Assembly (NCBI GenBank): GCA_046760225.1
Contig: JBHIDR010000023.1
Coordinates: 1 to 12,169 of the forward strand
Reading direction: 5' to 3'
DNA from: Candidatus Aenigmatarchaeota archaeon
GTDB taxonomy: Archaea; Aenigmatarchaeota; Aenigmatarchaeia; Aenigmatarchaeales; JACQIB01
Length of the DNA stretch: 12,169 nucleotides
The notes under the pieces were generated by a model, which was not told the origin of the DNA, ran no database searches, and was given only the letters and a program-made list of their open reading frames with translations. Made by a program: the position numbers and the translations under genes. Each line of letters starts with the position of its first letter. Position 1 is the first letter of the stretch. Shown here piece by piece: positions 1 through 12,169 of this stretch.

Positions 1-304
1 CAGCTTCTTTTATTTTGTCTTTTGCCCTTGTACCTGCGAGCAGCCCTGTAAGGTATGCTGCAGGTATGTTGCCTGTGCCTCCCTTCCATCCGTACTTCTT
101 GAGCTCCTGTGAATTGGCAGCAACCACGGTCCTGTCACCTTCAGGAACATAATCTATGAACTGGACATTCATGTGACTTGAGGATTTCCTTATCACCAGG
201 CGCACCTTTCCTGACCTGATGAGCCTGAGCCTTGCTCTGTAGTCTGTCCTTTTCTCCCTTCTCCTCTTGTGGGGCAGTTTGTAGCCTTTGGTTATCTTCG
301 CCAT
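1..304 (-). CDS. rpl18: 50S ribosomal protein uL18 (archaeal L18), 3' part runs off the window
   Basis: Not in the ORF track; translated by hand from ATG at 304: MAKITKGYKLPHKRRREKRTDYRARLRLIRSGKVRLVIRKS...GWKGGTGNIPAAYLTGLLAG. The RRRE-x-TDY-x2-RL and N-x-PAAYLTG motifs are typical of archaeal uL18. SD AGGTGA lies 6 nt before the ATG. Position after eL19 is canonical. Confidence 0.96.
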   Translation of the reverse strand, partial: MAKITKGYKLPHKRRREKRTDYRARLRLIRSGKVRLVIRKSSSHMNVQFIDYVPEGDRTVVAANSQELKKYGWKGGTGNIPAAYLTGLLAGTRAKDKIKEA

Positions 305-306
305 TT

Positions 307-747
307 CTACTCACCTTTCTCAATCAGGAGGTTGTTCTCTTTCAGGTATGTCTTCAGGTGCGCCCTGCTCCTGAAGCCTCCTCCCTTGATTTTTCTGTAG
401 ACCTTCCTGTAGGCAAGCGGTTTCAGCTTGCCGTCCTTCTTGTATTCCAGCAGCAATTTCCTCTGTGGCCTTACCATCTTCAGCCAGTCTGTTTTCTTGC
501 CTTCCCTTGCTCCTTTCCTTCCCTTCCTGCTTCCTGTCCTCTGCTTCCTGTATACTATCCTTTTCCTTTTCTTTACAGGAAGCTTTTTGATTATCCCATC
601 ATCAATCATCCCTCTGATATCAGACCTTGTTATGGCCTTCTTTATTCTTGGTGCTGCTGACGGATCCATCCATACCCTGTTCACCCCGCATTTCAGTATC
701 TTTGCTGCAAGCTTTCTTTGGGAATTTGATGTACTGTGCTGTCTCAT
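307..747 (-). CDS. rpl19e: 50S ribosomal protein eL19 (L19e)
   Basis: QRKLAAKILKCGVNRVWMDP, AITRSDIR, GSRKG and VYRKIKGGGF motifs. ATG at 747 is preferred over the track's GTG at 759, which overlaps the stop of the upstream microprotein. Confidence 0.96.
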   Translation of the reverse strand: MRQHSTSNSQRKLAAKILKCGVNRVWMDPSAAPRIKKAITRSDIRGMIDDGIIKKLPVKKRKRIVYRKQRTGSRKGRKGAREGKKTDWLKMVRPQRKLLLEYKKDGKLKPLAYRKVYRKIKGGGFRSRAHLKTYLKENNLLIEKGE

Positions 748-755
748 AAAACCAC

Positions 756-914
756 TCACGTATTATGGCTCTCCCTCTCACTTCCTTCGCTTATTATTCC
801 GAATTCTGAAAATATTGCATTGCATAAAGGACACACCAGTATCTCCTTGTCATTTTTCCATTTCCTTCCCCTTATGCCGCACGTCGGGCAGTTTTTTATC
901 GATATCATGAACAT
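756..914 (-). CDS. 52-aa zinc-ribbon (CPxCG-type) microprotein of unknown function
   Basis: Hand translation: MFMISIKNCPTCGIRGRKWKNDKEILVCPLCNAIFSEFGIISEGSERESHNT*. It has two Cys knuckles (CPTCG, CPLCN) and fills the eL32-eL19 gap almost exactly. ATG is 4 nt after the eL32 stop in the context GAAGTGA-TTTT-ATG. Alternative start at 908. Confidence 0.8.
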   Translation of the reverse strand: MFMISIKNCPTCGIRGRKWKNDKEILVCPLCNAIFSEFGIISEGSERESHNT

Positions 915-918
915 AAAA

Positions 919-1383
919 TCACTTCTCCTTCTTCTCCTCAGGTTTTTCTTTTGGTTTTTCTTCCTTCTTCTCCTCTTTTGGTTTTTCTTCCTTCTTCTCT
1001 TCTTTTTTTACTTCCTTCTTCTTTGCCTTTTTCTTTTCGGCCTTTTTCGGGTTCAGTATTTTGATTTTCTTTTCTTGTGCCTTCTTGATTATATCTCCCC
1101 TCTTCTTCCTTCCCACAGTAGAGGCTATCTTTATGCATTCTTTCCCTGGTTCTATCCTGTCCAGTTCTGATGTATTTCGCACAACCACCTCAACTAGACC
1201 GCACGGGTGCTTGCCTCTCATGGACTTCGGGCTGCCATAACCAACTGTTGGTATGAATCCCTTTCCTTTGATATGCTTCCTTAGTTTCGATTGCTTTCCC
1301 TTGGGTGCTCTCCACTTCTTTCCTAATGAAACTTTTCTGAACCATTCCTGCCTTAGGAACTTTTGTTTCTTTTTTGGATTCAT
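919..1383 (-). CDS. rpl32e: 50S ribosomal protein eL32 (L32e) with Lys/Glu-rich C-terminal tail
   Basis: FLRQEW, WRAPKGKQSKLR, VGYGSP, RGKHPCG and IASTVGRKKR motifs. Start is ATG 1383 (after GGAGGT) or ATG 1389. Confidence 0.96.
   Translation of the reverse strand: MNPKKKQKFLRQEWFRKVSLGKKWRAPKGKQSKLRKHIKGKGFIPTVGYGSPKSMRGKHPCGLVEVVVRNTSELDRIEPGKECIKIASTVGRKKRGDIIKKAQEKKIKILNPKKAEKKKAKKKEVKKEEKKEEKPKEEKKEEKPKEKPEEKKEK
947..999. repeat. Two-copy tandem repeat with 27-bp period inside the eL32 tail (EEKKEEKPK x2)
   Basis: tcttttggtttttcttccttcttctc occurs at 947-972 and again at 974-999. Confidence 0.8.
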
Positions 1384-1385
1384 GC

Positions 1386-1916
1386 TCATGACCTCCCCAC
1401 AAGGAAGCAGCCGTCCTGGAAAACTCTCCTGTCTCTTGCAGGTACTTTGGTTGCCTGCTCTATGTTGGTTGCTGTCTGGCCTGCTTTTTCTATGTCTGTT
1501 CCTGTGACAGTTATCTCATCGCCCTTTATCTCGACCTTTGTGCCTTCCAGTATTCTGGCTTTCCTCGGGAACTTCTCTCCGAGGAAGTTTGTGATATGCA
1601 CCTCGTCCCCGGAAACCTTCACTGTCATAGGAAAATGAACATAAACTATCTTCAGCTTGTACTTCCACCCGTCCTTCACTCCCTTTATCATGTTCCTTAT
1701 GTGGGCGGCTATGCAGCCCACTTCTGCCTTTACCTTTCTTTTGTCGCTCTTTGACTTCACAACAACCTTGTCATCCACCTTCTCTATGGTTATGAGCTTT
1801 GAAAAGATGGGACTGGAAAAATCTTTTTCAAGCTCGCCTCTCTCCCCTTTCACATTTACCTTAAGTCCCTTGACTGCAACCTCAGTCCCCTCAGCTATCT
1901 TGACTGTCTTTTCCAT
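1386..1916 (-). CDS. rpl6: 50S ribosomal protein uL6
   Basis: VKGERGEL, AAHIRNMIKGV, YVHFPM, NFLGEK and DRRVFQDG motifs. ATG 1916 follows AGGTG; the track's 1925 is a GTG inside the SD. Confidence 0.97.
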   Translation of the reverse strand: MEKTVKIAEGTEVAVKGLKVNVKGERGELEKDFSSPIFSKLITIEKVDDKVVVKSKSDKRKVKAEVGCIAAHIRNMIKGVKDGWKYKLKIVYVHFPMTVKVSGDEVHITNFLGEKFPRKARILEGTKVEIKGDEITVTGTDIEKAGQTATNIEQATKVPARDRRVFQDGCFLVGRS

Positions 1917-1925
1917 ATCATGCAC

Positions 1926-2312
1926 CTAGTACACAAATACCAGCAACCTGCCTCCTATCTTTCTTTTCTTTGCCTCTTCATGGCTCATGACACCCTCTGA
2001 AGTGGAGACTATTATTACTCCAAAGCCTGAAGCAGGCAGAAATCTCCTCTCGTATTTCTCATAATCCTCTTTTTTTACCCTGAACCTGGGCCTTATTGAA
2101 CCGCAGTTGTTTATTGTACCGAGGAGGGAGACCTTGAACTTGCCTCCTCTTGCATTGTCTATGAACTCGAAATTCCCTATGTAATTGTACGACTGCAGGA
2201 CCAGAAGGACGTTTTTAATCATGGTGGACGCTGGTGTGACTACATCTTTCTTTCCAAGCAGGTCGCCGTTCTTTATTGTTGACAGCACGTCTGAAAGCAG
2301 GTCATGCCTCAT
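1926..2312 (-). CDS. rps8: 30S ribosomal protein uS8
   Basis: YIGNFEFID, INNCGSIRPRF, FLPASGFG, IVSTSEGVMSH and IGGRLL motifs; SD AGGTGA. Confidence 0.97.
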   Translation of the reverse strand: MRHDLLSDVLSTIKNGDLLGKKDVVTPASTMIKNVLLVLQSYNYIGNFEFIDNARGGKFKVSLLGTINNCGSIRPRFRVKKEDYEKYERRFLPASGFGVIIVSTSEGVMSHEEAKKRKIGGRLLVFVY

Positions 2313-2321
2313 TACATCACC

Positions 2322-2468
2322 TTATGAATATTTTTTGAATCCTAGTTTTTTGGCTACTTCCCTCATGCACTGCCTGCAGTGCATCAGCCCGTACTTCCTT
2401 ATTACGCCTCCGCTCCTTCCGCATCTCCTGCATCTGTACTTCCCCTTGCCGTGTTTTCTTACAGCCAT
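2322..2468 (-). CDS. rps14: 30S ribosomal protein uS14 (zinc-binding C+ type)
   Basis: Not in the ORF track (48 aa): [48 protein letters not shown]. Has CRRCG...IRKYGL..CRQC.RE.A..LGFKK; canonical position between uL5 and uS8. Confidence 0.97.
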
Positions 2469-2975
2469 CTATTCCACCTTAACATTCAGGTTTTTTTCTG
2501 CCCATTCCCTTGCTTCTCCGGCAGTTATCCTGTGCGCCTTTCCTACCTTGCTGGAAATTCTTTTTTTGGCAACGCGATAACCTCTCCTTTCCAGTCTTAT
2601 GCAAACATCCATTCCGAATATTCCTATCTCAGGATCATAACGCACCCCAGGAATGGATATGTGCTCCTTTATGCCGAAGGAAAAGTTTCCCTGTGTATCA
2701 AAAACAGACGCGGCAAGCTTGAAGTCAACAGCATCAAGAAGCTTCTTCAGAAATTCCATTACATCTTCCCCGCGAAGGGTTATCTTGCATCCTATTGGCC
2801 TTCCCTTGCCTACACCAAAGGTGGTCCTCTTCCTTGTATGGGTCTTTACCACTTTCTTGCCTGTAAGGCTGGTCAGCAGCTTCTTGGCCTTTTCCAGCAT
2901 CTCTCCTGGCTCTCCGCACCCTATGTTGACCACAACTTTCTCAATCCTGATTTCCTTCATTGGGTTCATCATCAT
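2469..2975 (-). CDS. rpl5: 50S ribosomal protein uL5
   Basis: NPMKEIRIEKVVVNIG, PIGCKITLRG, GNFSFGIKEHI and YDPEIGIFGMDV motifs. Three tandem ATGs (2975, 2972, 2969) make the exact start uncertain. Confidence 0.97.
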   Translation of the reverse strand: MMMNPMKEIRIEKVVVNIGCGEPGEMLEKAKKLLTSLTGKKVVKTHTRKRTTFGVGKGRPIGCKITLRGEDVMEFLKKLLDAVDFKLAASVFDTQGNFSFGIKEHISIPGVRYDPEIGIFGMDVCIRLERRGYRVAKKRISSKVGKAHRITAGEAREWAEKNLNVKVE

Positions 2976-3646
2976 TCACCTGTCTTTATCAATGGTTCCT
3001 TGCTTCCGATTCCCATTACCACCCTCATCGGTGTTTCCATCTCTCTTCCTTCTGTCTCTAACCAGACCCTCTTGACCATTCCCTTCTCTATCTTCTTGAG
3101 TTTGGCAATCTTTCCGCTGTGCTTTCCTGAGATGATTATTACCAATATGCCTGGCTCGAACTTCACAGCATCAATTATCTTCTGTTCCGGAAGTTGTATC
3201 AGCAACGAATCATTAACAGAATACTTGTCCTCCTCTACCAGCATGTTCCTTCCATCATGAAGGTTGAGCTGAATCTTTCCTCCTTTCAGCACCACCTTGC
3301 CTATTATCTTGCATACCTTCCTGTCTGCCTCATTCTCAGGTATCTCAATAGCCCTCATTACTTTTCCTGGCACCATCCTGTAGCTCTTCCCACCAACAGT
3401 CACAACATCAAAAAGCCCGATTCCGCTTTTTGTATCTGTCATTATTCTCCCGTCTACCTTGACCTCTCTTCCCTTAATTATTGACTTGGCCTCCTTTGCA
3501 TTTTCTCCCAGTTCCAGCATGTCCCTTATTACAACTAACAGGGGTATGCTCTCATCCTTTCTGTGCGCTCCACGTGGCGCTGTAACAAACCTTGCTTTCT
3601 TCCTTTCCATTGACCATGGAACAGTAGGTCTTTTCAGTCTTGGCAT
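2972..3646 (-). CDS. rps4e: 30S ribosomal protein eS4 (S4e)
   Basis: LKR...W, PRGAH, SIPLLVVIRD, VKVDGR, GLFDVV and QLNLHDGRN motifs plus KOW-like IISGKHSGK. Confidence 0.96.
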   Translation of the reverse strand: MPRLKRPTVPWSMERKKARFVTAPRGAHRKDESIPLLVVIRDMLELGENAKEAKSIIKGREVKVDGRIMTDTKSGIGLFDVVTVGGKSYRMVPGKVMRAIEIPENEADRKVCKIIGKVVLKGGKIQLNLHDGRNMLVEEDKYSVNDSLLIQLPEQKIIDAVKFEPGILVIIISGKHSGKIAKLKKIEKGMVKRVWLETEGREMETPMRVVMGIGSKEPLIKTGE

Positions 3647-4005
3647 TACTTCGCCCTCCTTATTGCCCTCTGTCTTTTCTTGTCAGCCATGTCGGCCTTG
3701 ATGATCATAAGGTTTGACGCATGAATCGGTATTACAACCTCCTCACCCGAGACCTTTTTTCTTTTCAGGCTGTCAACATAGACCTTTGATTCCTTGAGGT
3801 CCACTTTTGTGACCTTGCCTGTGATTTTCTTGTGGTCCCCTCTCATTACTCTTACCTCATCACCCTTTCTCAGGCCAAGGCTCCTCTTCGCCATCTCCTT
3901 TGCCAGACTCTTGCTGAGTCTGGCTGAGACCAACCTCTTCCTCTTGTGCAGCTTTGCCCTGTAAATCCTCTTCCTCTGTTTTCCTGGTTTTTTTGAAGCC
4001 ATCAT
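3646..4005 (-). CDS. rpl24: 50S ribosomal protein uL24
   Basis: SKKPGKQRK, LSKSL, RKGDEVRVMRGD (KOW) and PIHASNLMI motifs. Alternative start at 4002. Confidence 0.97.
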   Translation of the reverse strand: MMASKKPGKQRKRIYRAKLHKRKRLVSARLSKSLAKEMAKRSLGLRKGDEVRVMRGDHKKITGKVTKVDLKESKVYVDSLKRKKVSGEEVVIPIHASNLMIIKADMADKKRQRAIRRAK

Positions 4006-4400
4006 ACCACCGTTGTTGCTATTTTTCCTATTGTGGAAAACCTCTCAACTGCCTCCTTTGCAACAGGGCCCTTTATCCTTGTGCCCCTTGCCTCCTTCCT
4101 CTCGTTGATGAGCACAGCTGCATTGTCCTCAAAGCTCATCCTCATCCCGTTCTTCCTCATGTACTCCTTTTTCTGCCTCACTATAACAGCATCAACAACC
4201 TCGTGCTTCATCTTCGGGTCGCCTTTCTTAACAGCTACCACCACTATGTCTGATACTCCTGCCCTGGGCTTCCTCCTCTTGACACCCTTGTATTTCTTCA
4301 CAGCAATTATTTGCAGCAGGTCTGCTCCTGTGTTATCTATGCACTTCAGGTAACTTCCTACCTGGAGAGCCTTTGTCATGGATGCGGACACTGCTTTCAT
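4002..4400 (-). CDS. rpl14: 50S ribosomal protein uL14
   Basis: CIDNTGA, AVIVRQKKEY, FEDNAAV and GTRIKGPVAKE motifs. Confidence 0.97.
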   Translation of the reverse strand: MKAVSASMTKALQVGSYLKCIDNTGADLLQIIAVKKYKGVKRRKPRAGVSDIVVVAVKKGDPKMKHEVVDAVIVRQKKEYMRKNGMRMSFEDNAAVLINERKEARGTRIKGPVAKEAVERFSTIGKIATTVV

Positions 4401-4753
4401 TTTCCCACCTCAATCACAACGAATGACTTTGTCTTGCTGAGCGACCTGCATTCAACAACCTTGACCTTGTCCCCTACCTTTGCTGAGATGCACTGTGGAT
4501 TGTAGGCAACAACCCTTCCCTTCCTCCTCTCATACCTCTCGTACTTGGGAAGATAGTGCACGAATCTCCATTCCACCACAGCTGTCTTTGATGCCTTGGC
4601 ACTCCTCACAATGCCTCTGATTATCCTGCCCCTCAAGGACAGGGAACCGTGCCACGGGCATTTCTTGTCTTTGCATGTCCCTTTGGGTGGTTTAGCATCT
4701 ATTCCTATGTTTGCATGCTTTCTCTCCTCTTTCTTTTTCTTTGTCAGCGCCAT
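4397..4753 (-). CDS. rps17: 30S ribosomal protein uS17
   Basis: NIGID, C-x-DKKCPWHGSLSLRG, PKYERYERR and ECRSLSKTKSFVV motifs. ATG 4753 follows GGTGA; the track's start is GTG 4762. Confidence 0.97.
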   Translation of the reverse strand: MALTKKKKEERKHANIGIDAKPPKGTCKDKKCPWHGSLSLRGRIIRGIVRSAKASKTAVVEWRFVHYLPKYERYERRKGRVVAYNPQCISAKVGDKVKVVECRSLSKTKSFVVIEVGK

Positions 4754-4755
4754 TG

Positions 4756-5037
4756 TCACCACTTTCTTATTCTTATTTTTATCCTGTCTTCAGGCCTCAG
4801 CTCTATTGTCTTTCCCCTGACCTTTACCTTTCTTTTGTCAGGCAGCGTGAAAATGAAGTCTGATGTTGCTTTACCTATTTTCTTTATTCCTTTTTTTGTC
4901 CTCATTACCAGTGTCTTCTTTGTTTCATTGACCACTTTTCCTCTTACGCCTACCAGTGTCTTGTTCCTGCTCTCTGCAACCTCTGCATCGAGCCCTATGA
5001 GTTCATGCCTCACGAGGTTCTTGGCCGTTATCGGCAT
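4756..5037 (-). CDS. rnp1: Ribonuclease P protein component 1 (Rpp29/Pop4)
   Basis: ITAKNLVRHELIGL, GKVVNETKKTL and LRPEDRIK motifs; canonical position between SUI1 and uS17. Start is ATG 5037 or 5043. Confidence 0.95.
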   Translation of the reverse strand: MPITAKNLVRHELIGLDAEVAESRNKTLVGVRGKVVNETKKTLVMRTKKGIKKIGKATSDFIFTLPDKRKVKVRGKTIELRPEDRIKIRIRKW

Positions 5038-5039
5038 TT

Positions 5040-5336
5040 TCATTCAACCTCTATCTGGTCTGGTGAAAAGCCTGCCTTTATCAGCAGGTCCTTCACACGC
5101 ATCTTGTGATTGCCCTGCAGTTCTATCTTGCCTTCCTTGAAGGTGCCTCCGCACGCGAGCTGCGACTTCAGCTTCTTTGTGAGCTCCTTTGCATCCTTCT
5201 CGATTCCTTCCACAATGGTCACCCACTTCCCGTACGACCTCCTAACATTATAGACCTTTATTTTTGCGGCCTCCTTTGCCATTGCCCCGCATACGCAGAG
5301 TTCCCTAGGCAAACCACAAACTTTACATACTGCCAG
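5040..5336 (-). CDS. sui1: Translation initiation factor aIF1 (SUI1 family), predicted CTG start
   Basis: (M)AVCKVCGLPRELCVC zinc-knuckle N-terminus, RRSYGKWVTIVEG, LKSQLACGGT and IELQGNH. The position where the initiator Met is expected is CTG (5336-5334), preceded by GGAGGCGA with a 6-nt spacer. The track's start at 5450 lies deep inside rpl29. Confidence 0.93.
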   Translation of the reverse strand: MAVCKVCGLPRELCVCGAMAKEAAKIKVYNVRRSYGKWVTIVEGIEKDAKELTKKLKSQLACGGTFKEGKIELQGNHKMRVKDLLIKAGFSPDQIEVE

Positions 5337-5553
5337 TTGTTTTCGCCTCCTTTTTCTTTTTCCTTTGTTTGAGTTCAGTGAGTATCCTTGCCATTGTCTT
5401 TCTTGTTTCACTGACACGTCCGGTATTGCTGGGACTTCCTCCAACAGCAATCTGCGCTCTTTCCTTGGACAGTTCCATCTTCAGCTCTGCCAGCCTCTTG
5501 CGCAAATCATCCTCACTCATCTCATGGATTTGTCTGATTCTGATAATCGCCAT
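5323..5553 (-). CDS. rpl29: 50S ribosomal protein uL29
   Basis: MAIIR...EMS...L.ELKMELSKER...GGSPSNTGRV...RKTMARILT. ATG 5553 is preferred (alternatives 5562, 5559). The 3' end overlaps the aIF1 start by 14 nt. Confidence 0.95.
   Translation of the reverse strand: MAIIRIRQIHEMSEDDLRKRLAELKMELSKERAQIAVGGSPSNTGRVSETRKTMARILTELKQRKKKKEAKTTGSM
5343..5350 (-). promoter_or_regulatory. Strong Shine-Dalgarno site (GGAGGCGA) for the CTG-initiated aIF1 gene
   Basis: One mismatch to the archaeal GGAGGTGA consensus. The 6-nt spacer to CTG equals the AGGTGA-GTAGAA-ATG spacing of rpl18 in this operon. Confidence 0.75.
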
Positions 5554-5558
5554 CAGCA

Positions 5559-6218
5559 TCACTCTTCTTTTTTCTTCTCCCCCTTCTTTTCTTCTTCCTT
5601 TGGCTTCTCTTCCTCTTCTTTCATCATCTTCCTTCCAAGTTTCTTCATGGCCTCTATCTCTTTAGGCGGCTCTATGAGTATCCTTACCTGGACCCCGATT
5701 GTGCCCAGCTTTACCTGGGCAGTTGCATATGCCTTGCTAAGCTTTTCAGCTGGCTCACCTGCAAATTTCAGGTAGCCTGCAGAGAACTTCTCTGTTCTTC
5801 CCATTTCTCCACCGACCTTACCACCGATTCTTATTGCTGCACCCACTGCACCTGCTTCCATTATTCTTGTTAATGCAAGGCTCGCAACCCTCTTGTATTT
5901 CAGGCCCCTCTCTATTGCAGCCGCAATCTGCTTTGCAACAATATTGGCATCAAGGTCAGGGTTCTCTATTTCCTGTACATCAAGCTGCGGGTTCTCTATA
6001 CCGAACCTTTCCTTCAGTACCTGTGATATCGCATCAATTGTCTTGCCTCCCCTTCCTATCACCATGCCTGGCCTTTGTGCATAAACAGTAATCCTTATTG
6101 ACAGGGGAGTCCTGTGGATATCGCTGTGGCTGTATCCGGCTCTCGCGAACTCCCTTGCAAGGAATTCATCAACTTCCGAAAGCCTCAGGTTCTCTCTGAT
6201 GAACTTCTTCTCTATCAT
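5559..6218 (-). CDS. rps3: 30S ribosomal protein uS3
   Basis: MIEKKFI, RAGYS, KH motif RPGMVIGRGG, NPDLDA, IMEAGAVG and KLGTIGVQVRI; Lys/Glu-rich tail. Confidence 0.97.
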   Translation of the reverse strand: MIEKKFIRENLRLSEVDEFLAREFARAGYSHSDIHRTPLSIRITVYAQRPGMVIGRGGKTIDAISQVLKERFGIENPQLDVQEIENPDLDANIVAKQIAAAIERGLKYKRVASLALTRIMEAGAVGAAIRIGGKVGGEMGRTEKFSAGYLKFAGEPAEKLSKAYATAQVKLGTIGVQVRILIEPPKEIEAMKKLGRKMMKEEEEKPKEEEKKGEKKKEE

Positions 6219-6637
6219 TTCTTTTCCACCTTCTTTTCCTCTTTTTTCTTTTCCACCTTCTCCTCCCCCGGCTTGAGGATTGCTTGGAGGTTTGTTGACT
6301 TCATCATTGTTCCGTGCCTTCTCTTCCTCCTGGCCCTCATCATTGTAGCTCCCTGATGGGCTGATATGAAAAGTATCATCTTCCCGGGCTCAATGTCCCT
6401 TGCCTTGGCATTTGATTCCAAAGATTCCAAAAGCCTCTTTATGTTCTCTGATGCTGATGTGTAGTAGCATCCCTTGATGCTCTTTTTCTTTTCAACAATA
6501 TCGCTGATTGTTTTCTTTGCTCTTTTGAACTGCATCCTGTTCAGGTGCCTGCATATCACCACCGCGTTCTTCGTGGAAATGCTTGCAGTTGTCCTTGCTG
6601 TCACCATTTCCTTTGTTACAGGCATTGTATAGCTCAT
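6215..6637 (-). CDS. rpl22: 50S ribosomal protein uL22 (divergent, shortened)
   Basis: Position between uS19 and uS3; ISTKNAVVICRHL and LLESLESNA motifs. Start is ATG 6637 or 6643 (the track uses GTG 6646). Confidence 0.9.
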   Translation of the reverse strand: MSYTMPVTKEMVTARTTASISTKNAVVICRHLNRMQFKRAKKTISDIVEKKKSIKGCYYTSASENIKRLLESLESNAKARDIEPGKMILFISAHQGATMMRARRKRRHGTMMKSTNLQAILKPGEEKVEKKKEEKKVEKK

Positions 6638-6642
6638 ACTCA

Positions 6643-7029
6643 TCACTTAAGTGGCAGGAACTTGCTGCTTTTTGTTGCACCAACTCCTGGTGCACTGTGC
6701 ATGACCTTCTTTCTGGTCATTGCAAATTCTCCAAGCCTTCTTCCCAGCATTTCTGTCTTTATTTCAATTACTACCCACTCCTTGCCAGCATGAATGCTAA
6801 TTTTCTTGCCAACCATCTCGGGGAGCACTACCATGTCCCTGCAGTGTGTCTTTACCACAGCCTTCTTTCCTTTCCTCAGCCTCTCAAGCAGTTTCTTTTG
6901 CTGCACAGTGAGTCCCCTTTTCAGGCTCCTTCTTTCCCTTGACCTCACCAGCTTTGCAAACTCTTCAAGGCTCATCTTCTGCAGCTCCTCGATTGTTCTC
7001 CCCTTGTATGTGACTATCTTTGCCACCAT
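6643..7029 (-). CDS. rps19: 30S ribosomal protein uS19
   Basis: [42 protein letters not shown] and [14 protein letters not shown] motifs. Confidence 0.97.
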
Positions 7030-7030
7030 C

Positions 7031-7723
7031 TCACCTCTTTTTCCTTCCCATCCTCCTGGGTGCTACTGACCCTACTTTTGCTCCAGGAGGTGCCCATCTT
7101 GATTTGCTCTTTGGCTGTCCTGGTTTTGTCTGGCCTCCGAACGGATGGTCAACAGGGTTCATGCTCACAGCTGATGTCCTTGGGTAGAGCTTGTTTCTTG
7201 CATGGTGCCTGTGGTATGCCTGGCCTGCTTTCACAAACGGCTTCTCCTTTCTGCCACTCCCAGCTGGCACACCTATTGTTGCCATGCACTTGGGATTGAA
7301 GTTCTTGAATTTCTTTGAAGGCATCTGCACTATTACTTTTCCTGGCTCATGTGAAACCATTATAGCATGCGTGCCTGCTGCACAGCATAGCTGTGGTCCT
7401 TTGCCTGGGATGTTCTCTATTGCAAAAATATACGAGCCCTTTGGTATTGCTGAGAGCGGAAGTATGTTGCCAACAGCAGGGGTCTTTCCAACATCAAGCA
7501 GTGTCCCTACTCTGAGGCCCTCGGCTGCTATTATGAGTATTTCCTTGCCGTCTTCCATTCTTAGCTTGGCAAGAGGCGCGTCCCTTGCAGGATCATTTAT
7601 TATGTCAACCACTTCTGCTTTTCCTTCAGGCGGATACTTCACTGCACCAGCAAACCTGTGTCCAGGGCTCCTGTAAGTGGGTCCGCCCTTTCCCCTTGCC
7701 CTCTGTATTATTCTTTTTCCCAT
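7031..7723 (-). CDS. rpl2: 50S ribosomal protein uL2
   Basis: [39 protein letters not shown] and APPGAKVG motifs. Confidence 0.97.
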
Positions 7724-7731
7724 TCAATCAC

Positions 7732-8028
7732 CTATAGCATACCGAACCTCGTTGCAATGTCTGCTGCATTGAACTCCTTGCTCAGTTTGACAATTGCCCT
7801 CTTCTTTCCCCTCTTGTCTATGAGCGTGTTGATGCTGTCCACCTTTACTTCCAAGGCGGTTTCAATTGCCCATCTTATTTGTTTTTTGTTAGCCTTTCTT
7901 GAAACAATGAACATGAGCTTGTTCTCCTTTTCCACCATGCCTATTGCTTTTTCAGTGAGCAATGGATGATAGATTATGCTCCAGGGGTCTATTGCTGCTT
8001 TCTTTTTGACTTTCTTCTTCTCAGCCAT
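7732..8028 (-). CDS. rpl23: 50S ribosomal protein uL23
   Basis: DPWSII.HPLLTEKA, ENKLMFIV, NTLI, KKRAIVKL and A.DIATRFG motifs. ATG 8028 follows GGTGAGAGGT. Confidence 0.96.
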   Translation of the reverse strand: MAEKKKVKKKAAIDPWSIIYHPLLTEKAIGMVEKENKLMFIVSRKANKKQIRWAIETALEVKVDSINTLIDKRGKKRAIVKLSKEFNAADIATRFGML

Positions 8029-8812
8029 ACCTCTCACCCAGATAATTTATTGCAGACTCTGTCCATAGTGTGAGCCTTCCGCCTTTTGCTCCGGGAGCAA
8101 GCATCTCGACATTCAGGTTCTTTATGTTGCAGACCTCTGCACTAGAGATGTTAGAGAGCGCCTTTACAATCCCCTCGTCCTTTCCAACAACAAGAAGGAA
8201 CGACTTCTTGGTCTTGTATTTCCTTCCCCTCATCTTTCCTTTTCCTGCCCTGACCTTTTTCTTCTTTGCCCTTTCCAGCTCGCTCTTGATTTCCATTGCT
8301 ACCATTACCTTCTTCAGCTCGCTCGTCTTCTTTATTCCTTGAATATCGTCCTTGAAAATTATCGGCAGTTCAAGGCCCTTGGGTATATTGTGCCTCTTTC
8401 TCACAATATCAGAGGCTGTTGCAGCTATTGCTGACTTGAGTGCAACCACTGCTTCTTTCTTGTTTATTTTTTCCTTCCAGACCTTCTCTGTCTTTGGGGG
8501 ATGCGCACGCCTGCCTCCTCTTGTCTGCGGAGCGCGCCTTGCCCTCAGGTCCACTCCAGGCGGACCACCATGCACTCTTGGCAGTCTTGCCATCTCCCTG
8601 TTCATCATGGTATACCTGCTGTGTCTCATGCCATGGTAGTGCGCTGAAGTCCTCTTTCCTGCCCTGATGTTCGTACCATAGGGCTGTCTCCTCATTGACT
8701 GCAGTGCAAGCACTGCTCTCTTTATCAGGTCAGGTCTGTATTCAGTGCTGAATACCTCTGGTAGTTTGATTTCACCTACAACCTTTCCTTCCTTGTCATA
8801 TACTTTGCTCAT
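8021..8812 (-). CDS. rpl4: 50S ribosomal protein uL4
   Basis: RPDLIKRAV, AGKRTSA, ARLPR, GGRRAHPPK, RAGKGKMRGRKY and LAPG...GRLTLWTESA motifs. Start is 8812 or 8818. Confidence 0.97.
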   Translation of the reverse strand: MSKVYDKEGKVVGEIKLPEVFSTEYRPDLIKRAVLALQSMRRQPYGTNIRAGKRTSAHYHGMRHSRYTMMNREMARLPRVHGGPPGVDLRARRAPQTRGGRRAHPPKTEKVWKEKINKKEAVVALKSAIAATASDIVRKRHNIPKGLELPIIFKDDIQGIKKTSELKKVMVAMEIKSELERAKKKKVRAGKGKMRGRKYKTKKSFLLVVGKDEGIVKALSNISSAEVCNIKNLNVEMLAPGAKGGRLTLWTESAINYLGERYG

Positions 8813-8814
8813 AA

Positions 8815-9792
8815 TCATGCACCCTGCTTGCTCTCCAATGATATGTACCTGACATCAACAGGAAACTTTGTTTTTCTGGGCCTGACAGGCACCCTCATCC
8901 TTATCAGCTGCTTTGTTGGGCCTGGCACACTTCCCTCAATAACAAGCGCTTCTCCCCTCACTTTCCCATATCTCAGGAAGCCTCCTTTTATTTCTATCTC
9001 CTCTGGCTTGGCAACCTTCAGCACCCTCTTGTTCGGCTCGCACCTTGAGAAGTAACCCAGTTGCCCTGCCTGCGGTATTGTTGGTCTTACTTTTCCTGGC
9101 TCTTTCTGCCCTTTTGGCGCGCTCTTCCTATGAAGGTGCTCTGCTTTTCTTCCATGAATTCTTATGCCAAATCTTTTCACTGCACCTGCAAAGCCCTTGC
9201 CCTTTGTTACTCCGGAAACATCCATGAAGTCCCCTGATGCAAAGATATCAGACGCCTTTATCTCCTTCCCGAGCATTTCCTTGGCATACTTTAGCTGCTC
9301 ATCCTTCTTGCCTCCCAGTGCAACCTCGAACACAGCAGGCTTCTTCTTGAACAGGGGATTTGTATGGCACAATAGTGTTATCTCTGCTATCTTGTCGGTA
9401 TTATCATCTATTTTCTTCAATTGCATGGCTGTTGTAGACTTCTTTGGAACTCTCAACTTTCTTGCAAGCTTCTTGTCAACTTTTTCAGCAAGAACATGCG
9501 TGAAAGTCCTTTTTCCAGCAGTTGTATGAACATACGCTCTGAAACCGAAAACAGAAAGAGGAGGGCAGTCAATCACGGTTACTGACCTGGCAAGAGCCTG
9601 GCCCTTTGTCCTTGAGTTTGGGTTTGTGTCCACCACAAGGGCATGCGTCATTCCAGCCTTGTATCCTGCAAAGCCCAGTGGCTTTGTCTCCTTTGCCCTT
9701 GGCCAGCTCTTGATCCTCGGATAGCTACGTCTGGCTCTTTTCCTGGGATAAAAGCCCATGCTTCCCCTTGTTGGCCTCTTTACTTTCGGCAT
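8815..9792 (-). CDS. rpl3: 50S ribosomal protein uL3
   Basis: RPTRGSMGFYPRKRA, GFAGYKAGMTH, TKGKGFAGAVKRFG, PQAGQLG and GSVPGP motifs. True start is ATG 9792 (GTGA-TTCA-ATG), not the track's TTG at 9888. Confidence 0.97.
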   Translation of the reverse strand: MPKVKRPTRGSMGFYPRKRARRSYPRIKSWPRAKETKPLGFAGYKAGMTHALVVDTNPNSRTKGQALARSVTVIDCPPLSVFGFRAYVHTTAGKRTFTHVLAEKVDKKLARKLRVPKKSTTAMQLKKIDDNTDKIAEITLLCHTNPLFKKKPAVFEVALGGKKDEQLKYAKEMLGKEIKASDIFASGDFMDVSGVTKGKGFAGAVKRFGIRIHGRKAEHLHRKSAPKGQKEPGKVRPTIPQAGQLGYFSRCEPNKRVLKVAKPEEIEIKGGFLRYGKVRGEALVIEGSVPGPTKQLIRMRVPVRPRKTKFPVDVRYISLESKQGA

Positions 9793-9822
9793 TGAATCAC
9801 TTTTTCTTTTAACTTCTTCAAC

Positions 9823-9840
9823 CTTTTTAAACCTTATTCT
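9823..9840 (-). promoter_or_regulatory. Candidate proximal TATA box for the r-protein operon
   Basis: Minus strand reads AGAATAAGG-TTTAAAAA, ending about 31 nt upstream of the rpl3 ATG. Confidence 0.4.
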
Positions 9841-9916
9841 GAGAACACGTATCCCACAAGAGCCCTTCCAAACCCTTGCTCTGCGCAAAAACTTTCCAAT
9901 CTCCTTTGCTCTTCAA

Positions 9917-9934
9917 TGTATTTAAAGCTTTTTG
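9917..9934. promoter_or_regulatory. Archaeal BRE-TATA promoter, possibly bidirectional
   Basis: Minus strand reads CAAAAAGC-TTTAAATA, an A-rich BRE plus consensus TATA facing rpl3. Plus strand reads TTTAAAG about 25 nt before ATG 9952, the spacing expected for a leaderless mRNA. Confidence 0.6.
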
Positions 9935-9951
9935 CTGCCCACTATTGGGCT

Positions 9952-10158
9952 ATGGAGGACTTCCCTGTTGAGGAAAGGCCATGGAGCAGATGGAACGGCA
10001 CTTGGAAACAGTATACCAAGGACTGTGAAGATTGTGATTTCTACAAGCAAGTTGATGGGGAAGACAGGTGCTATCAGGGCAAGGCATGGAAGCGCCTCAG
10101 CAGGAACGTGAAAAAGCTCAGGAAGTGCCAGTATAGCCAGCCAAAGAACTCATGGTAG
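9952..10158 (+). CDS. Small 68-aa four-cysteine (CxxC-x11-C-x18-C) hypothetical protein
   Basis: MEDFPVEERPWSRWNGTWKQYTKDCEDCDFYKQVDGEDRCYQGKAWKRLSRNVKKLRKCQYSQPKNSW. It fills the gap between the promoter and the nuclease stop. The track's start at 9916 overlaps the TATA box, so 9952 is preferred. Confidence 0.7.
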   Translation: MEDFPVEERPWSRWNGTWKQYTKDCEDCDFYKQVDGEDRCYQGKAWKRLSRNVKKLRKCQYSQPKNSW

Positions 10159-11328
10159 GGCTGTATCCTCTTCTATTGCATCCCATTTCTCCCTCAGTAG
10201 CTGTCTCATTGTCATCTCATTGCCATGGAGCTCCCTTGCAGCATCCTCGCATATCTGCAGGTTGAAGCAGTCACCGCACTTCCCTGCCTCAAGCATGGAA
10301 TCCTTGACCTTCTGGTAGAAGTTCCTGTCATCCAGTATCCTCCTCTGCACATTGGCTGTCCTTGTTATTTCTTTTTCTAGGTTGCCCACAACTTCCCCCT
10401 CATCAAATTCCACTCTTGTTATGTGTAGTTCCAGTGGTCTGTCGCCCCCTTTCTGCGGGTCCCTTGGCCTTTTGGCAGATATGACCTGGAAATGCTCGCA
10501 ATCAAGGCCAAGCTGCTCTATCACAGCCAGTGCATAAACGCTCATCTGGAACTTGGTTCCCCATTCCTCATACATGGAGTACTTCTTCCTCTTCTGGTCG
10601 AATATGACAGGCTCCACCTCTCCTGTCTCCATGTTTATGAACTTCAGAACTGCATCAGCATGCCCGCTTAGCACATATTCCATGCCGTCTATTACAAATG
10701 TCTTTTCCAGCAACCTTTCACAATACTTCCTCCTGTCCATAGAATCAATGCCATCTATCTTCAGCCTCTGGTTCTCAATCATGTCATCAACATGCTGGCC
10801 GTTCAGGAACGTATGGCCTGTTGTGCCTTTTATTGCCAGGTCATTCTGCAAATATCCAAGCTTTGTCTGGTCTGTCTTGGTGAATATCCTGAACATGTCA
10901 CATTTTCTCGTTGACCATTGGTCATTGTCCTTTACTTCCTCGAATGTGCCACCTGAGAACTCGCTTCCCCTGAGATGGTATTTCTTGTAATCATCTTTCA
11001 TTGGAATGGGCAATGGCTCATATTTCCATTTCCTTGTTAATTTAATCAGGTCCTCTGTCTCCCTGCCCTCATACTCCACCATCCAGTCAACCCTGTGGTT
11101 CAGAAGCAGTATGTACTCCTCTATTCCTTGGAGCGAATACCCCTCAGTATACGTATCTTCCTTTAGCAAATCAAGCGCACGGTCTGTTATGTACCTGTCG
11201 CCATCCTCATCAATGGCCTTTGTCAGGCCGTATGTGCATTTGGGCAGTTCATCATCAGGCCTGCACAAATCAGTGTCCCTGAAGGGACAGTTAAAGAAGT
11301 TAAGCTCGCATCCTCCGCTTCCAGTCAC
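10150..11328 (-). CDS. PD-(D/E)XK superfamily nuclease, Cas4/AddB/RecB-like, with predicted Fe-S staple
   Basis: Motifs in the expected order: ...RKCDMF (first Cys), GTTGH, LSGHADAV (motif II Asp), IFDQK (motif III), QMSVYA (QxxxY) and C-terminal CGDCFNLQIC (CxxC-x5-C). GTG start follows the SD GGGAGGT. Confidence 0.82.
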   Translation of the reverse strand: MTGSGGCELNFFNCPFRDTDLCRPDDELPKCTYGLTKAIDEDGDRYITDRALDLLKEDTYTEGYSLQGIEEYILLLNHRVDWMVEYEGRETEDLIKLTRKWKYEPLPIPMKDDYKKYHLRGSEFSGGTFEEVKDNDQWSTRKCDMFRIFTKTDQTKLGYLQNDLAIKGTTGHTFLNGQHVDDMIENQRLKIDGIDSMDRRKYCERLLEKTFVIDGMEYVLSGHADAVLKFINMETGEVEPVIFDQKRKKYSMYEEWGTKFQMSVYALAVIEQLGLDCEHFQVISAKRPRDPQKGGDRPLELHITRVEFDEGEVVGNLEKEITRTANVQRRILDDRNFYQKVKDSMLEAGKCGDCFNLQICEDAARELHGNEMTMRQLLREKWDAIEEDTALP

Positions 11329-12163
11329 TATAAAAACCTCCCATTATCCTGTTTATTGAAGAGGGGTCGGCCTCCCTGTAAGAGCTCCTTTCAGCATTCT
11401 CCATCACCTTCCAGCTTATGAACTCGACCCCGTCTATGAACTTTAGAATGTCCCAGACATATGAGCTTTCCATTGCAATAACGTCTATCTCCTTTATGTC
11501 TAATGGATTGAGCAGGCTCTCCTTTATTGCCAGCGCCATTAATTGCTTGTTGAGGTATGTGCTCCTGTCAATCACGTTTTCATATTCCTGTTTAAAAATC
11601 TCCTGCACAACTCCCTTTGTCTTTTCATATCCTATCTCAAAGCACTTCTTTACCTTGTCCCTTGAATAGTCGGAAAGAAAAGGTATGTTCCTCTTGATAA
11701 AGCCCATTGAAAATTCCTTGTCATCTACGTAGCCTGTACGCGCCTTTTTGGCCACTCTTCCGGAAAACAGTTTTACGCTGAACTCATAGTTTCCTGTCAT
11801 AGGCCCTTCTTGCTTTACTAACCTGTCCAGGGAACCAAATGTATGCTTGTTCTTTTGCTCCAGATAAAGCTCAGCTTCCAGTACAGCTTCAGGAGCAGCG
11901 TGCTCCATTATTATGTCCCCGTCCTTTTCATTAAATACAAAGGGGAAGAATATCGGGGATACCGGGTGTATCACTTCATCTTCATAGCCTGTAAGGTCCT
12001 CACCATATTTTTTCTTATGCTCTTTTACAACGCTGTTGACCCCCTTTAACAGCTCCTCATAGAACCTTGCAAAGTGCGCTGTCCAGTCCATGCCTGTAGG
12101 GGATGATGGCTTCAGTCCGAACCTGCTGTCTGGTTCAGTAAAGTCCACGCTTAATCCTGTCAT
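11300..12163 (-). CDS. Hypothetical protein (287 aa)
   Basis: Long open frame with globular-protein composition that overlaps the nuclease start by 29 nt. The ATG is in a TGATG context, suggesting coupling to an upstream gene beyond the window. No family recognised. Confidence 0.75.
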   Translation of the reverse strand: MTGLSVDFTEPDSRFGLKPSSPTGMDWTAHFARFYEELLKGVNSVVKEHKKKYGEDLTGYEDEVIHPVSPIFFPFVFNEKDGDIIMEHAAPEAVLEAELYLEQKNKHTFGSLDRLVKQEGPMTGNYEFSVKLFSGRVAKKARTGYVDDKEFSMGFIKRNIPFLSDYSRDKVKKCFEIGYEKTKGVVQEIFKQEYENVIDRSTYLNKQLMALAIKESLLNPLDIKEIDVIAMESSYVWDILKFIDGVEFISWKVMENAERSSYREADPSSINRIMGGFYSDWKRRMRA

Positions 12164-12169
12164 CAGCCT

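Follow-up and report, generated by a model that had tools for sequence, protein, structure and literature searches.

Where does translation of the archaeal initiation factor aIF1 begin, and can the choice of its initiation codon set the level of the factor itself? This question is raised by a stretch of 12,169 nucleotides (nt) from a Candidatus Aenigmatarchaeota archaeon (GenBank assembly GCA_046760225.1, contig JBHIDR010000023.1, positions 1 to 12,169; hereafter the window, by which we mean the whole of the stretch that was analysed), the minus strand of which carries an aIF1/SUI1 gene within a ribosomal protein (r-protein) operon. An earlier note on this DNA had proposed that the gene starts at a CUG codon and that aIF1, through its part in start-codon selection, holds down its own synthesis from that codon. 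The comparisons presented below make it very likely that this Aenigmarchaeota-like archaeon genuinely initiates aIF1 at the CUG at 5336-5334 and that this codon is under selection; the whole statement, namely a CUG start together with negative feedback through the proofreading activity of aIF1 itself, we consider about evenly poised between being right and being wrong. The elements on which the argument turns are the following:

5040..5336, minus strand: aIF1/SUI1 coding sequence as read from the CTG, 98 codons plus a TGA stop (from its translation, Pfam, NCBIfam and the match to structure 4mo0_A).
5334..5336, minus strand: CTG, the proposed aIF1 initiation codon, homologous to ATG or GTG starts in 33 other loci and to CTG in 6 others.
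5343..5351, minus strand: Shine-Dalgarno (SD)-like AGGAGGCGA, 6 nt upstream of the CTG, with AAACAA between them.
5289..5327, minus strand: zinc knuckle CKVCGLPRELCVC, 13 codons, of the CxxCGLPxELCxC type.
5280..5282, minus strand: first in-frame ATG (Met19), 18 codons downstream of the CTG; the start used by gene callers that refuse CTG.

The frame in question encodes (L/M)AVCKVCGLPRELCVCGAMAKE... and ends at 5040. Its product is recovered by the SUI1 domain profile PF01253 with 64.8 bits (cutoff 25.5) and by the NCBIfam model NF002096 with 130.8 bits (cutoff 98), and it matches the solved structure of the Methanocaldococcus jannaschii aIF1 (4mo0_A) with an E-value of 8e-30, residues 3-97 of the query aligning with residues 4-101 of the chain and the CxxCGLPxELCVC knuckle lying within the alignment. 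By homology, the window protein is thus a clear archaeal aIF1, zinc knuckle included, and the presence of such a knuckle in many archaeal aIF1 proteins is noted in passages of a structural study of the factor (PMC6237735). Since residue 3 of the window protein pairs with residue 4 of 4mo0_A, the CTG falls at the place of the first residues of the solved aIF1.

Read along the minus strand, the start region has the order GGAGGCGA (5350-5343), AAACAA, CTG (5336-5334), GCA GTA, TGT (5327-5325) and AAA GTT TGT GGT TTG CCT, which puts the CTG three codons ahead of the knuckle. Re-reading the strand from the SD to the CCT reproduced exactly the sequence and positions that the earlier note had given, and confirmed its statements that no in-frame ATG precedes 5282 and that a start there would cost the protein its whole knuckle: initiation at ATG 5282-5280 would delete all four knuckle cysteines. 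The note did not mention three canonical codons in the same frame, a TTG at 5312-5310 (the Leu of GLP in the knuckle) and GTG codons at 5417 and 5411, which lie within the L29 gene 27 and 25 codons upstream of the CTG, where the frame is open up to a TTG at 5450. None of the three is backed by relatives or by its SD spacing, and the window has no canonical start that combines the homologous N-terminal position with a suitable distance from an SD. An out-of-frame ATG at 5328-5326 was also tried as a start and rejected, as it is merely the last codon of L29, with TAA directly after it.

The SD-like element was evaluated against an assumed anti-SD motif, which may not be that of the host. On this assumption, its predicted duplex has an energy of -12.0 kcal/mol, with a spacer of 5 nt when counted from the end of the duplex, and ranks 1 among the 13 operon genes in the window, for which the neighbour mean is -8.4 kcal/mol. 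The description of this SD as among the strongest of the operon therefore holds, as does the companion claim that every other gene has a usable ATG, at least for the window operon genes examined. Searches for further signals around the CTG were negative: the RNA of 5390-5290 folds with -13 kcal/mol at a z-score of +1.35, with 182 of 200 shuffled sequences folding equally well or better; Rfam at gathering thresholds gave 0 matches in this region of the window; and inspection of the aligned loci by eye disclosed no conserved -3 or +4 base around the CTG that would amount to a Kozak-like context.

To place the CTG in an evolutionary setting, we collected aIF1 loci (given L numbers below) from species-representative genomes, the scan being confined to those with an 8-residue peptide in common with the window. 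At least 42 loci were recovered, of which L040-L042 were set aside as bacterial YciH-type, and the remaining 39 were compared together with the window, making 40. The codon at the start position is CTG in 7 of these (the window, L001, L004, L005, L007, L015 and L021), GTG in 4 (L002, L003, L006 and L008) and ATG in 29; no CTN codon other than CTG, no TTA and no non-NTG codon occupies it in any of the 40. Several of the CTG loci have an in-frame stop close upstream: a TAG immediately ahead of the CTG in L001, TAA and TGA two codons ahead of it in L004 and L005, respectively, and stops 6 and 5 codons before it in L007 and L021. L001 further has no ATG, GTG or TTG between its TAG and the internal Met. 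The spacer from SD to CTG is 4-7 nt in all seven CTG loci. Two of them have a canonical codon just upstream, in L015 a GTG three codons before the CTG and within the SD-like AAGGTGA, and in L021 a TTG two codons before it and abutting the SD-like GAGGGGGT.

The start position was then compared with ordinary leucine positions. CTG makes up 0.42 of the Leu codons in the window, 0.37 in L001, 0.08 in L007, 0.30 in L015, 0.11 in L021 and 0.20 in L004, and the product of these shares over the six lineages is 8e-5. As a control, we took the 35 columns of neighbouring genes in which each of the six CTG lineages has Leu: none (0/35) keeps a single codon, the maximum being CTG in 4 of 6. Over the 36 pairs of the nine CTG/GTG lineages, the codons of the knuckle itself display 201 synonymous against 71 nonsynonymous differences, with all four Cys codons varying between TGT and TGC and the Leu positions varying as CTT/TTG at one and CTC/CTG/CTT/ATC at the other. 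This mostly synonymous variation speaks of purifying selection, and the knuckle is therefore translated. By these comparisons, the codon ahead of the knuckle is one that behaves as a start codon and not as a Leu sense codon, and the factor's own start is found to be both suboptimal and evolutionarily conserved (CTG in 7/40 and GTG in 4/40 loci, against 0/35 in the control).

A tree of ten concatenated r-proteins (IQ-TREE, quick mode, LG+G4) was computed for 35 of the 40 rows, L016, L027, L029, L031 and L032 being left out because they filled fewer than 500 columns. The window belongs to a deep Aenigmarchaeota-like clade of six rows, with CTG in the window, L007, L001, L015 and L021 and GTG in L002; its end branches measure 0.27-0.40 changes per column, r-protein identity to the window reaches 62% at best, and its sister is L014 with ATG. 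A separate Hadarchaeota clade (support 100) combines CTG in its two Hadarchaeales rows (L004 and L005) with GTG in L003, L006 and L008 and ATG in L010 and L013, and all 20 Woesearchaeota-/Nanoarchaeota-type rows have ATG. The two CTG-bearing clades thus stand apart, with ATG-bearing lineages between them, and the fewest changes on the tree are 3 for CTG against other codons and 4 for all states. The earlier note had named uniform ATG among close relatives as a finding that would sink its proposal; the genomes nearest on the tree have CTG (L007, L001) or GTG (L002). Taken together, homologous CTG codons in six species genomes from two phylum-level lineages, the restriction of the position to NTG, the upstream stops, the SD spacing and the selected knuckle strongly back a CUG start for aIF1.

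The public gene calls bear the imprint of this codon. A protein search returned 2542 homologues, the best 120 of which were listed (P numbers below). The record from the window's own contig, P0003, is the 98-residue form with M at the CTG; the identical protein on 2 other contigs (P0005) is called from ATG 5282 as 80 residues, and two relatives, P0010 (91% identity) and P0026 (80%), are likewise called as 80-residue forms from the internal Met. Such short calls are typical of a caller that finds no ATG, GTG or TTG upstream, and those of P0010 and P0026 are as expected if these three codons are lacking at the start position there too. The prediction that callers would miscall the start hence came true in P0005 and failed in P0003, which has its M at the CTG. 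Among the best 120 of the 2542, the call begins one codon ahead of the first Cys in 25 clusters; 3 others are knuckle-less 80-residue forms and 1 is a 90-residue form. The first of these classes can be traced in L004, L005 and L007, in which callers take as the start the GTG (Val) that immediately precedes the first Cys, yielding the 'M/V-CKVCGLP' proteins that make up 25/120 listed clusters. This GTG stands about 15-17 nt from the SD, and its place is taken by GTA or ATA in the window, L001, L015, L021, L006 and L008. The short or shifted aIF1 N-termini on record are probably wrong, and the recorded N-termini of the family need review. The aIF1 gene of Sulfolobus solfataricus was formerly annotated as frameshifted, and resequencing gave the full length, suggesting a sequencing error (2021 review). 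On the matter of names, NF002096 and several NCBI records label archaeal aIF1 as 'stress response translation initiation inhibitor YciH', a bacterial name, and a literature match for 'aIF1' (PMC5714202) was discarded as it is about the human gene AIF1L and not the archaeal factor.

Whether the CTG is peculiar to aIF1 was addressed with the starts of its operon neighbours. Ten cleanly aligned families (L3, L4, L2, S19, L22, S3, S4e, L5, S8 and L19e) entered a count of 283 genes; L23, L32e, S17, L29, Rpp29, L14, L24 and L6, in which internal Met residues or a variable N-terminus make the start column noisy, were left out of the count and read by eye instead. The nearest canonical starts in the ten families are 261 ATG, 13 GTG and 9 TTG, with 5 rows uncalled owing to gaps or alignment shifts, so that non-ATG starts occur in 11/40 aIF1 genes against 22/283 neighbours (Fisher p 7e-4, shared ancestry not corrected). 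The reading by eye took in 16 loci and 19 families; in the 7 CTG loci, it showed one of the canonical codons ATG, GTG and TTG at the homologous N-terminus of every neighbour. Among the operon genes examined, the CTG start is confined to aIF1. The SD of aIF1 is the strongest of the operon in 11/11 non-ATG loci and in 13/24 ATG loci (Fisher p 0.007, with the assumed anti-SD).

The aIF1 start is also closely interlocked with the genes on either side of it:

5323..5553, minus strand: L29 gene (PF00831 and translation), likely starting at the ATG at 5553, by an N-terminal alignment that begins MAIIR...
5323..5325, minus strand: TAA stop of L29, beginning 11 nt after the C of the CTG, in a frame different from that of aIF1.
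4756..5043, minus strand: gene for the RNase P subunit Rpp29 (PF01868), the ATG of which overlaps the aIF1 stop as ATGA.

The last 14 nt of L29 overlap the aIF1 start region in the window. Across the 40 loci, L29 is present around aIF1 in 33 and Rpp29 in 28, and in most of them the offset of the L29 stop from the start of aIF1 is between -7 and +14 nt. Given this proximity, and the mere 11 nt from the C of the CTG to the L29 stop in the window, translational coupling between L29 and aIF1 is likely. In three loci (L001, L004 and L005), L29 terminates in the frame of aIF1, with 0-1 codons between its stop and the CTG; this stop is TAA in L004 and TGA in the near-identical L005.

How could such an arrangement set the level of aIF1? 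In the scheme that we favor, the strong SD 5-6 nt upstream would position the small subunit on the CUG, which ribosomes finishing L29 would probably also feed; the CUG would pair with the initiator tRNA with a first-position mismatch, making for weak initiation. If aIF1 destabilises non-AUG initiation complexes, abundant aIF1 would lower the yield from its own CUG and scarce aIF1 would raise it, resulting in negative feedback inside the r-protein operon. Such an activity would accord with passages in two papers (PMC4705826, PMC6237735), in which aIF1 is reported to block 30S complexes on an AUU mRNA in vitro in S. solfataricus and to be a fidelity factor in Pyrococcus abyssi. The scheme further draws on analogy with the AUU start of bacterial infC and the poor-context AUG of eukaryotic eIF1, of which it would be the archaeal counterpart. 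A search of the full-text literature, with subscription journals largely outside its reach, returned no report of a non-AUG start or of start-codon autoregulation for archaeal aIF1; in the relevant passages of the 2018 P. abyssi aIF1 paper (PMC6237735), the eIF1 loop is mentioned as an analogy only.

The main rival to this scheme is one that accepts the CUG start and dispenses with the feedback: the weak codon, together with ribosomes coming off L29, would act as a fixed attenuator that sets a low, constant ratio of aIF1 to r-proteins. The sequence data fit both. The closeness of the L29 stop to the aIF1 start in most loci and the position of the gene inside a polycistronic r-protein operon are what an attenuator would call for, and the GTG or ATG of sister lineages suggests graded tuning of output rather than a switch. 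However, a weak SD could lower output too, yet that of aIF1 is the strongest in every non-ATG locus; a fixed attenuator also leaves aside that the CTG is confined, among the operon genes examined, to the one whose product proofreads start codons. Moreover, if aIF1 rejects CUG complexes as it does those on AUU in vitro, feedback would follow automatically. We regard a start of this kind without feedback as a serious possibility that nevertheless falls well short of an even chance.

The other alternatives deny the CUG its role. Translation might begin elsewhere, at GTG 5417 or 5411 to give a long form, at TTG 5312 or at the knuckle-less ATG 5282, leaving the CTG as a Leu codon or untranslated; all four codons do exist in frame, and callers took ATG 5282 on the two other contigs of P0005 and its counterpart in P0010 and P0026. 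Against this, the in-frame stops 1-6 codons before the CTG bar an upstream extension in L001, L004, L005, L007 and L021, and by eye no SD-like motif comes closer than about 20 nt upstream of the GTG codons of the window, so the upstream GTG starts were rejected. The short form from ATG 5282 was ruled out by the purifying selection on the knuckle, which marks it as translated, and a Leu sense codon would be expected to drift among six codons, as all 35 control columns do. A start elsewhere is accordingly very improbable. Even less credible is a single L29-aIF1 chain, produced by stop readthrough or frameshifting with no need of an aIF1 start. The in-frame L29 stops of L001, L004 and L005 would suit such a fusion, but L29 and aIF1 occupy different frames in the window (+11), L007 (+5) and L021 (-5), on which ground it was rejected; in addition, the stop differs between L004 and L005, Rfam detects no recoding element, and the RNA folds no better than shuffled sequences. 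Lastly, the CTG might have arisen through faulty sequencing or assembly, or through a mutation that recently disabled an ATG, a suspicion that a single metagenome-type contig such as the window invites. Its recurrence at this position in 6 species genomes, each assembled independently, the short calls of the identical protein on 2 other contigs (P0005) and of P0010 and P0026, and an otherwise intact and conserved aIF1 gene make an artefact of this sort exceedingly unlikely.

Several observations weigh against a selected CUG start with feedback as the preferred reading. The evidence on these uncultured organisms is one of sequence comparison, and the 40-locus sample is biased, consisting of DPANN-type and Hadarchaeota genomes. 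ATG occupies the start position in 29/40 loci, including the basal relatives L014, L010 and L013, and therefore any start-codon feedback is not general to Archaea. The closest named relative among the listed matches, P0004 (79% identity), which lies outside the 40 loci whose codons were read, begins MTVCKVC... The zero count of CTG among the 283 neighbour genes arises by design, as the rule sought ATG, GTG and TTG only, and it is the by-eye reading that furnishes the real control. In the Hadarchaeota loci L003-L008, L29 starts with GTG and S4e with TTG, and S19 and S3 also start with GTG in L006 and L008; non-ATG starts are therefore common in the r-protein operon of these lineages, and a non-AUG start is not special to aIF1; only CTG is. 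Finally, a strong aIF1 SD is common in ATG loci too (13/24, among L009-L039), which speaks against a clean compensation for a weak codon, and aIF1 genes seem to have a strong SD in general.

By Pfam, the minus strand of the window is a typical archaeal r-protein operon in the order L3, L4, L23, L2, S19, L22, S3, L29, SUI1/aIF1, Rpp29, S17, L14, L24, S4e, L5, S8, L6, L32e, L19e and L18; the placement between L29 and Rpp29 that is expected of an archaeal aIF1 gene is confirmed by this gene order. An S14-like open reading frame (ORF) of 48 residues lies at 2322-2468. The textbook version of the operon has no gene between L32e and L19e. In the window, this interval holds a 52-residue ORF (756-914, minus strand) with a zinc-ribbon-like CxxC...CxxC pattern, which has sub-threshold Pfam zinc-ribbon matches only and no NCBIfam family, and which is kept at 35-39% identity in L021, L002, L001 and L028. 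Upstream of the operon are two ORFs, at 10150-11328 (minus strand, 392 residues) and 11300-12163 (minus strand, 287 residues), for which we found no Pfam or NCBIfam family and no match in related loci. A tRNA scan of the window found 0 genes, so that no initiator tRNA is encoded within it.

The Woesearchaeota-type rows provide two further observations. In a subgroup of them (L030 and L033-L038), the knuckle cysteines are replaced (MVEIDPITGLPKELSVW or MPEIDPITGLPKELGVW) with GLPKEL being kept, and the zinc site appears to have been lost; the replaced-cysteine site lies around position 5001, at about 2516 in L036 and at 1953 in L037. Four loci (L017, L019, L026 and L035) are titled Methanosarcinales or 'Aminicenantes bacterium', yet have archaeal r-protein operons that group with the Woesearchaeota-type rows, and these bin labels are probably wrong.

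Returning to the CUG start with feedback, a broader reading, which we put forward tentatively and at somewhat less than an even chance, is that Archaea independently reached the solution seen in bacterial infC and in eukaryotic eIF1: aIF1 would be made from a conserved CUG behind the strongest SD of its operon in at least two lineages, Aenigmarchaeota-like and Hadarchaeales, and would set its own level. Were the feedback real, self-control of a fidelity factor through its own suboptimal start would be present in all three domains, on unrelated or diverged factors, which would argue for a near-inevitable design for setting the stringency of initiation. If the CUG start is true, it would mean that Archaea use CUG physiologically, as an initiation codon under selection; even without feedback, it would be a conserved start outside what common gene callers accept, and its SD and CUG provide a natural substrate for the toeprinting and cryo-EM initiation systems that exist for Archaea.

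Among known systems, the translational coupling of overlapping genes in r-protein operons is one point of comparison: in most loci the stop codon of L29 either overlaps the start of aIF1 or lies right beside it, and ATGA joins the end of aIF1 to the start of Rpp29. Coupling alone, however, accounts neither for the loss of a canonical start in aIF1 only nor for the conservation of the CTG. The GUG and UUG starts of Archaea share with this CUG the class of first-position mismatch with the initiator tRNA, and sister lineages of the window have GTG at the aIF1 start position; they differ in that most gene callers disallow CTG, hence the short or shifted calls. In the passages of a 2014 review that deal with archaeal alternates, GUG and UUG are named and no others, and the corresponding part of a Haloferax ribosome-profiling paper sets aside near-cognate sites other than these two. 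As for eukaryotes, aIF1 is a homologue of eIF1 (PDB eIF1 chains match the window protein), and review passages describe how high eIF1 inhibits initiation at its own suboptimal start. Yet eIF1 keeps an AUG and depends on its Kozak context during scanning, whereas in the aIF1 locus a near-cognate codon would be placed by a strong SD, with no scanning. A further parallel is infC, the gene for bacterial IF3: in both, a fidelity factor has a gene with a non-canonical start, against which IF3 discriminates and aIF1 would do so, and the gene stands in an operon with r-protein genes, and the expected logic is the same, low factor relaxing stringency and so giving more factor, as outlined in part of a review. 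In infC, mutation of AUU to AUG abolishes autocontrol, according to the title of a cited reference. The two systems differ in that IF3 and aIF1 are unrelated proteins, that the CTG in aIF1 is lineage-restricted (7/40 loci) and that the infC AUU is a third-position mismatch, in contrast to the first-position mismatch of the CUG in the window.

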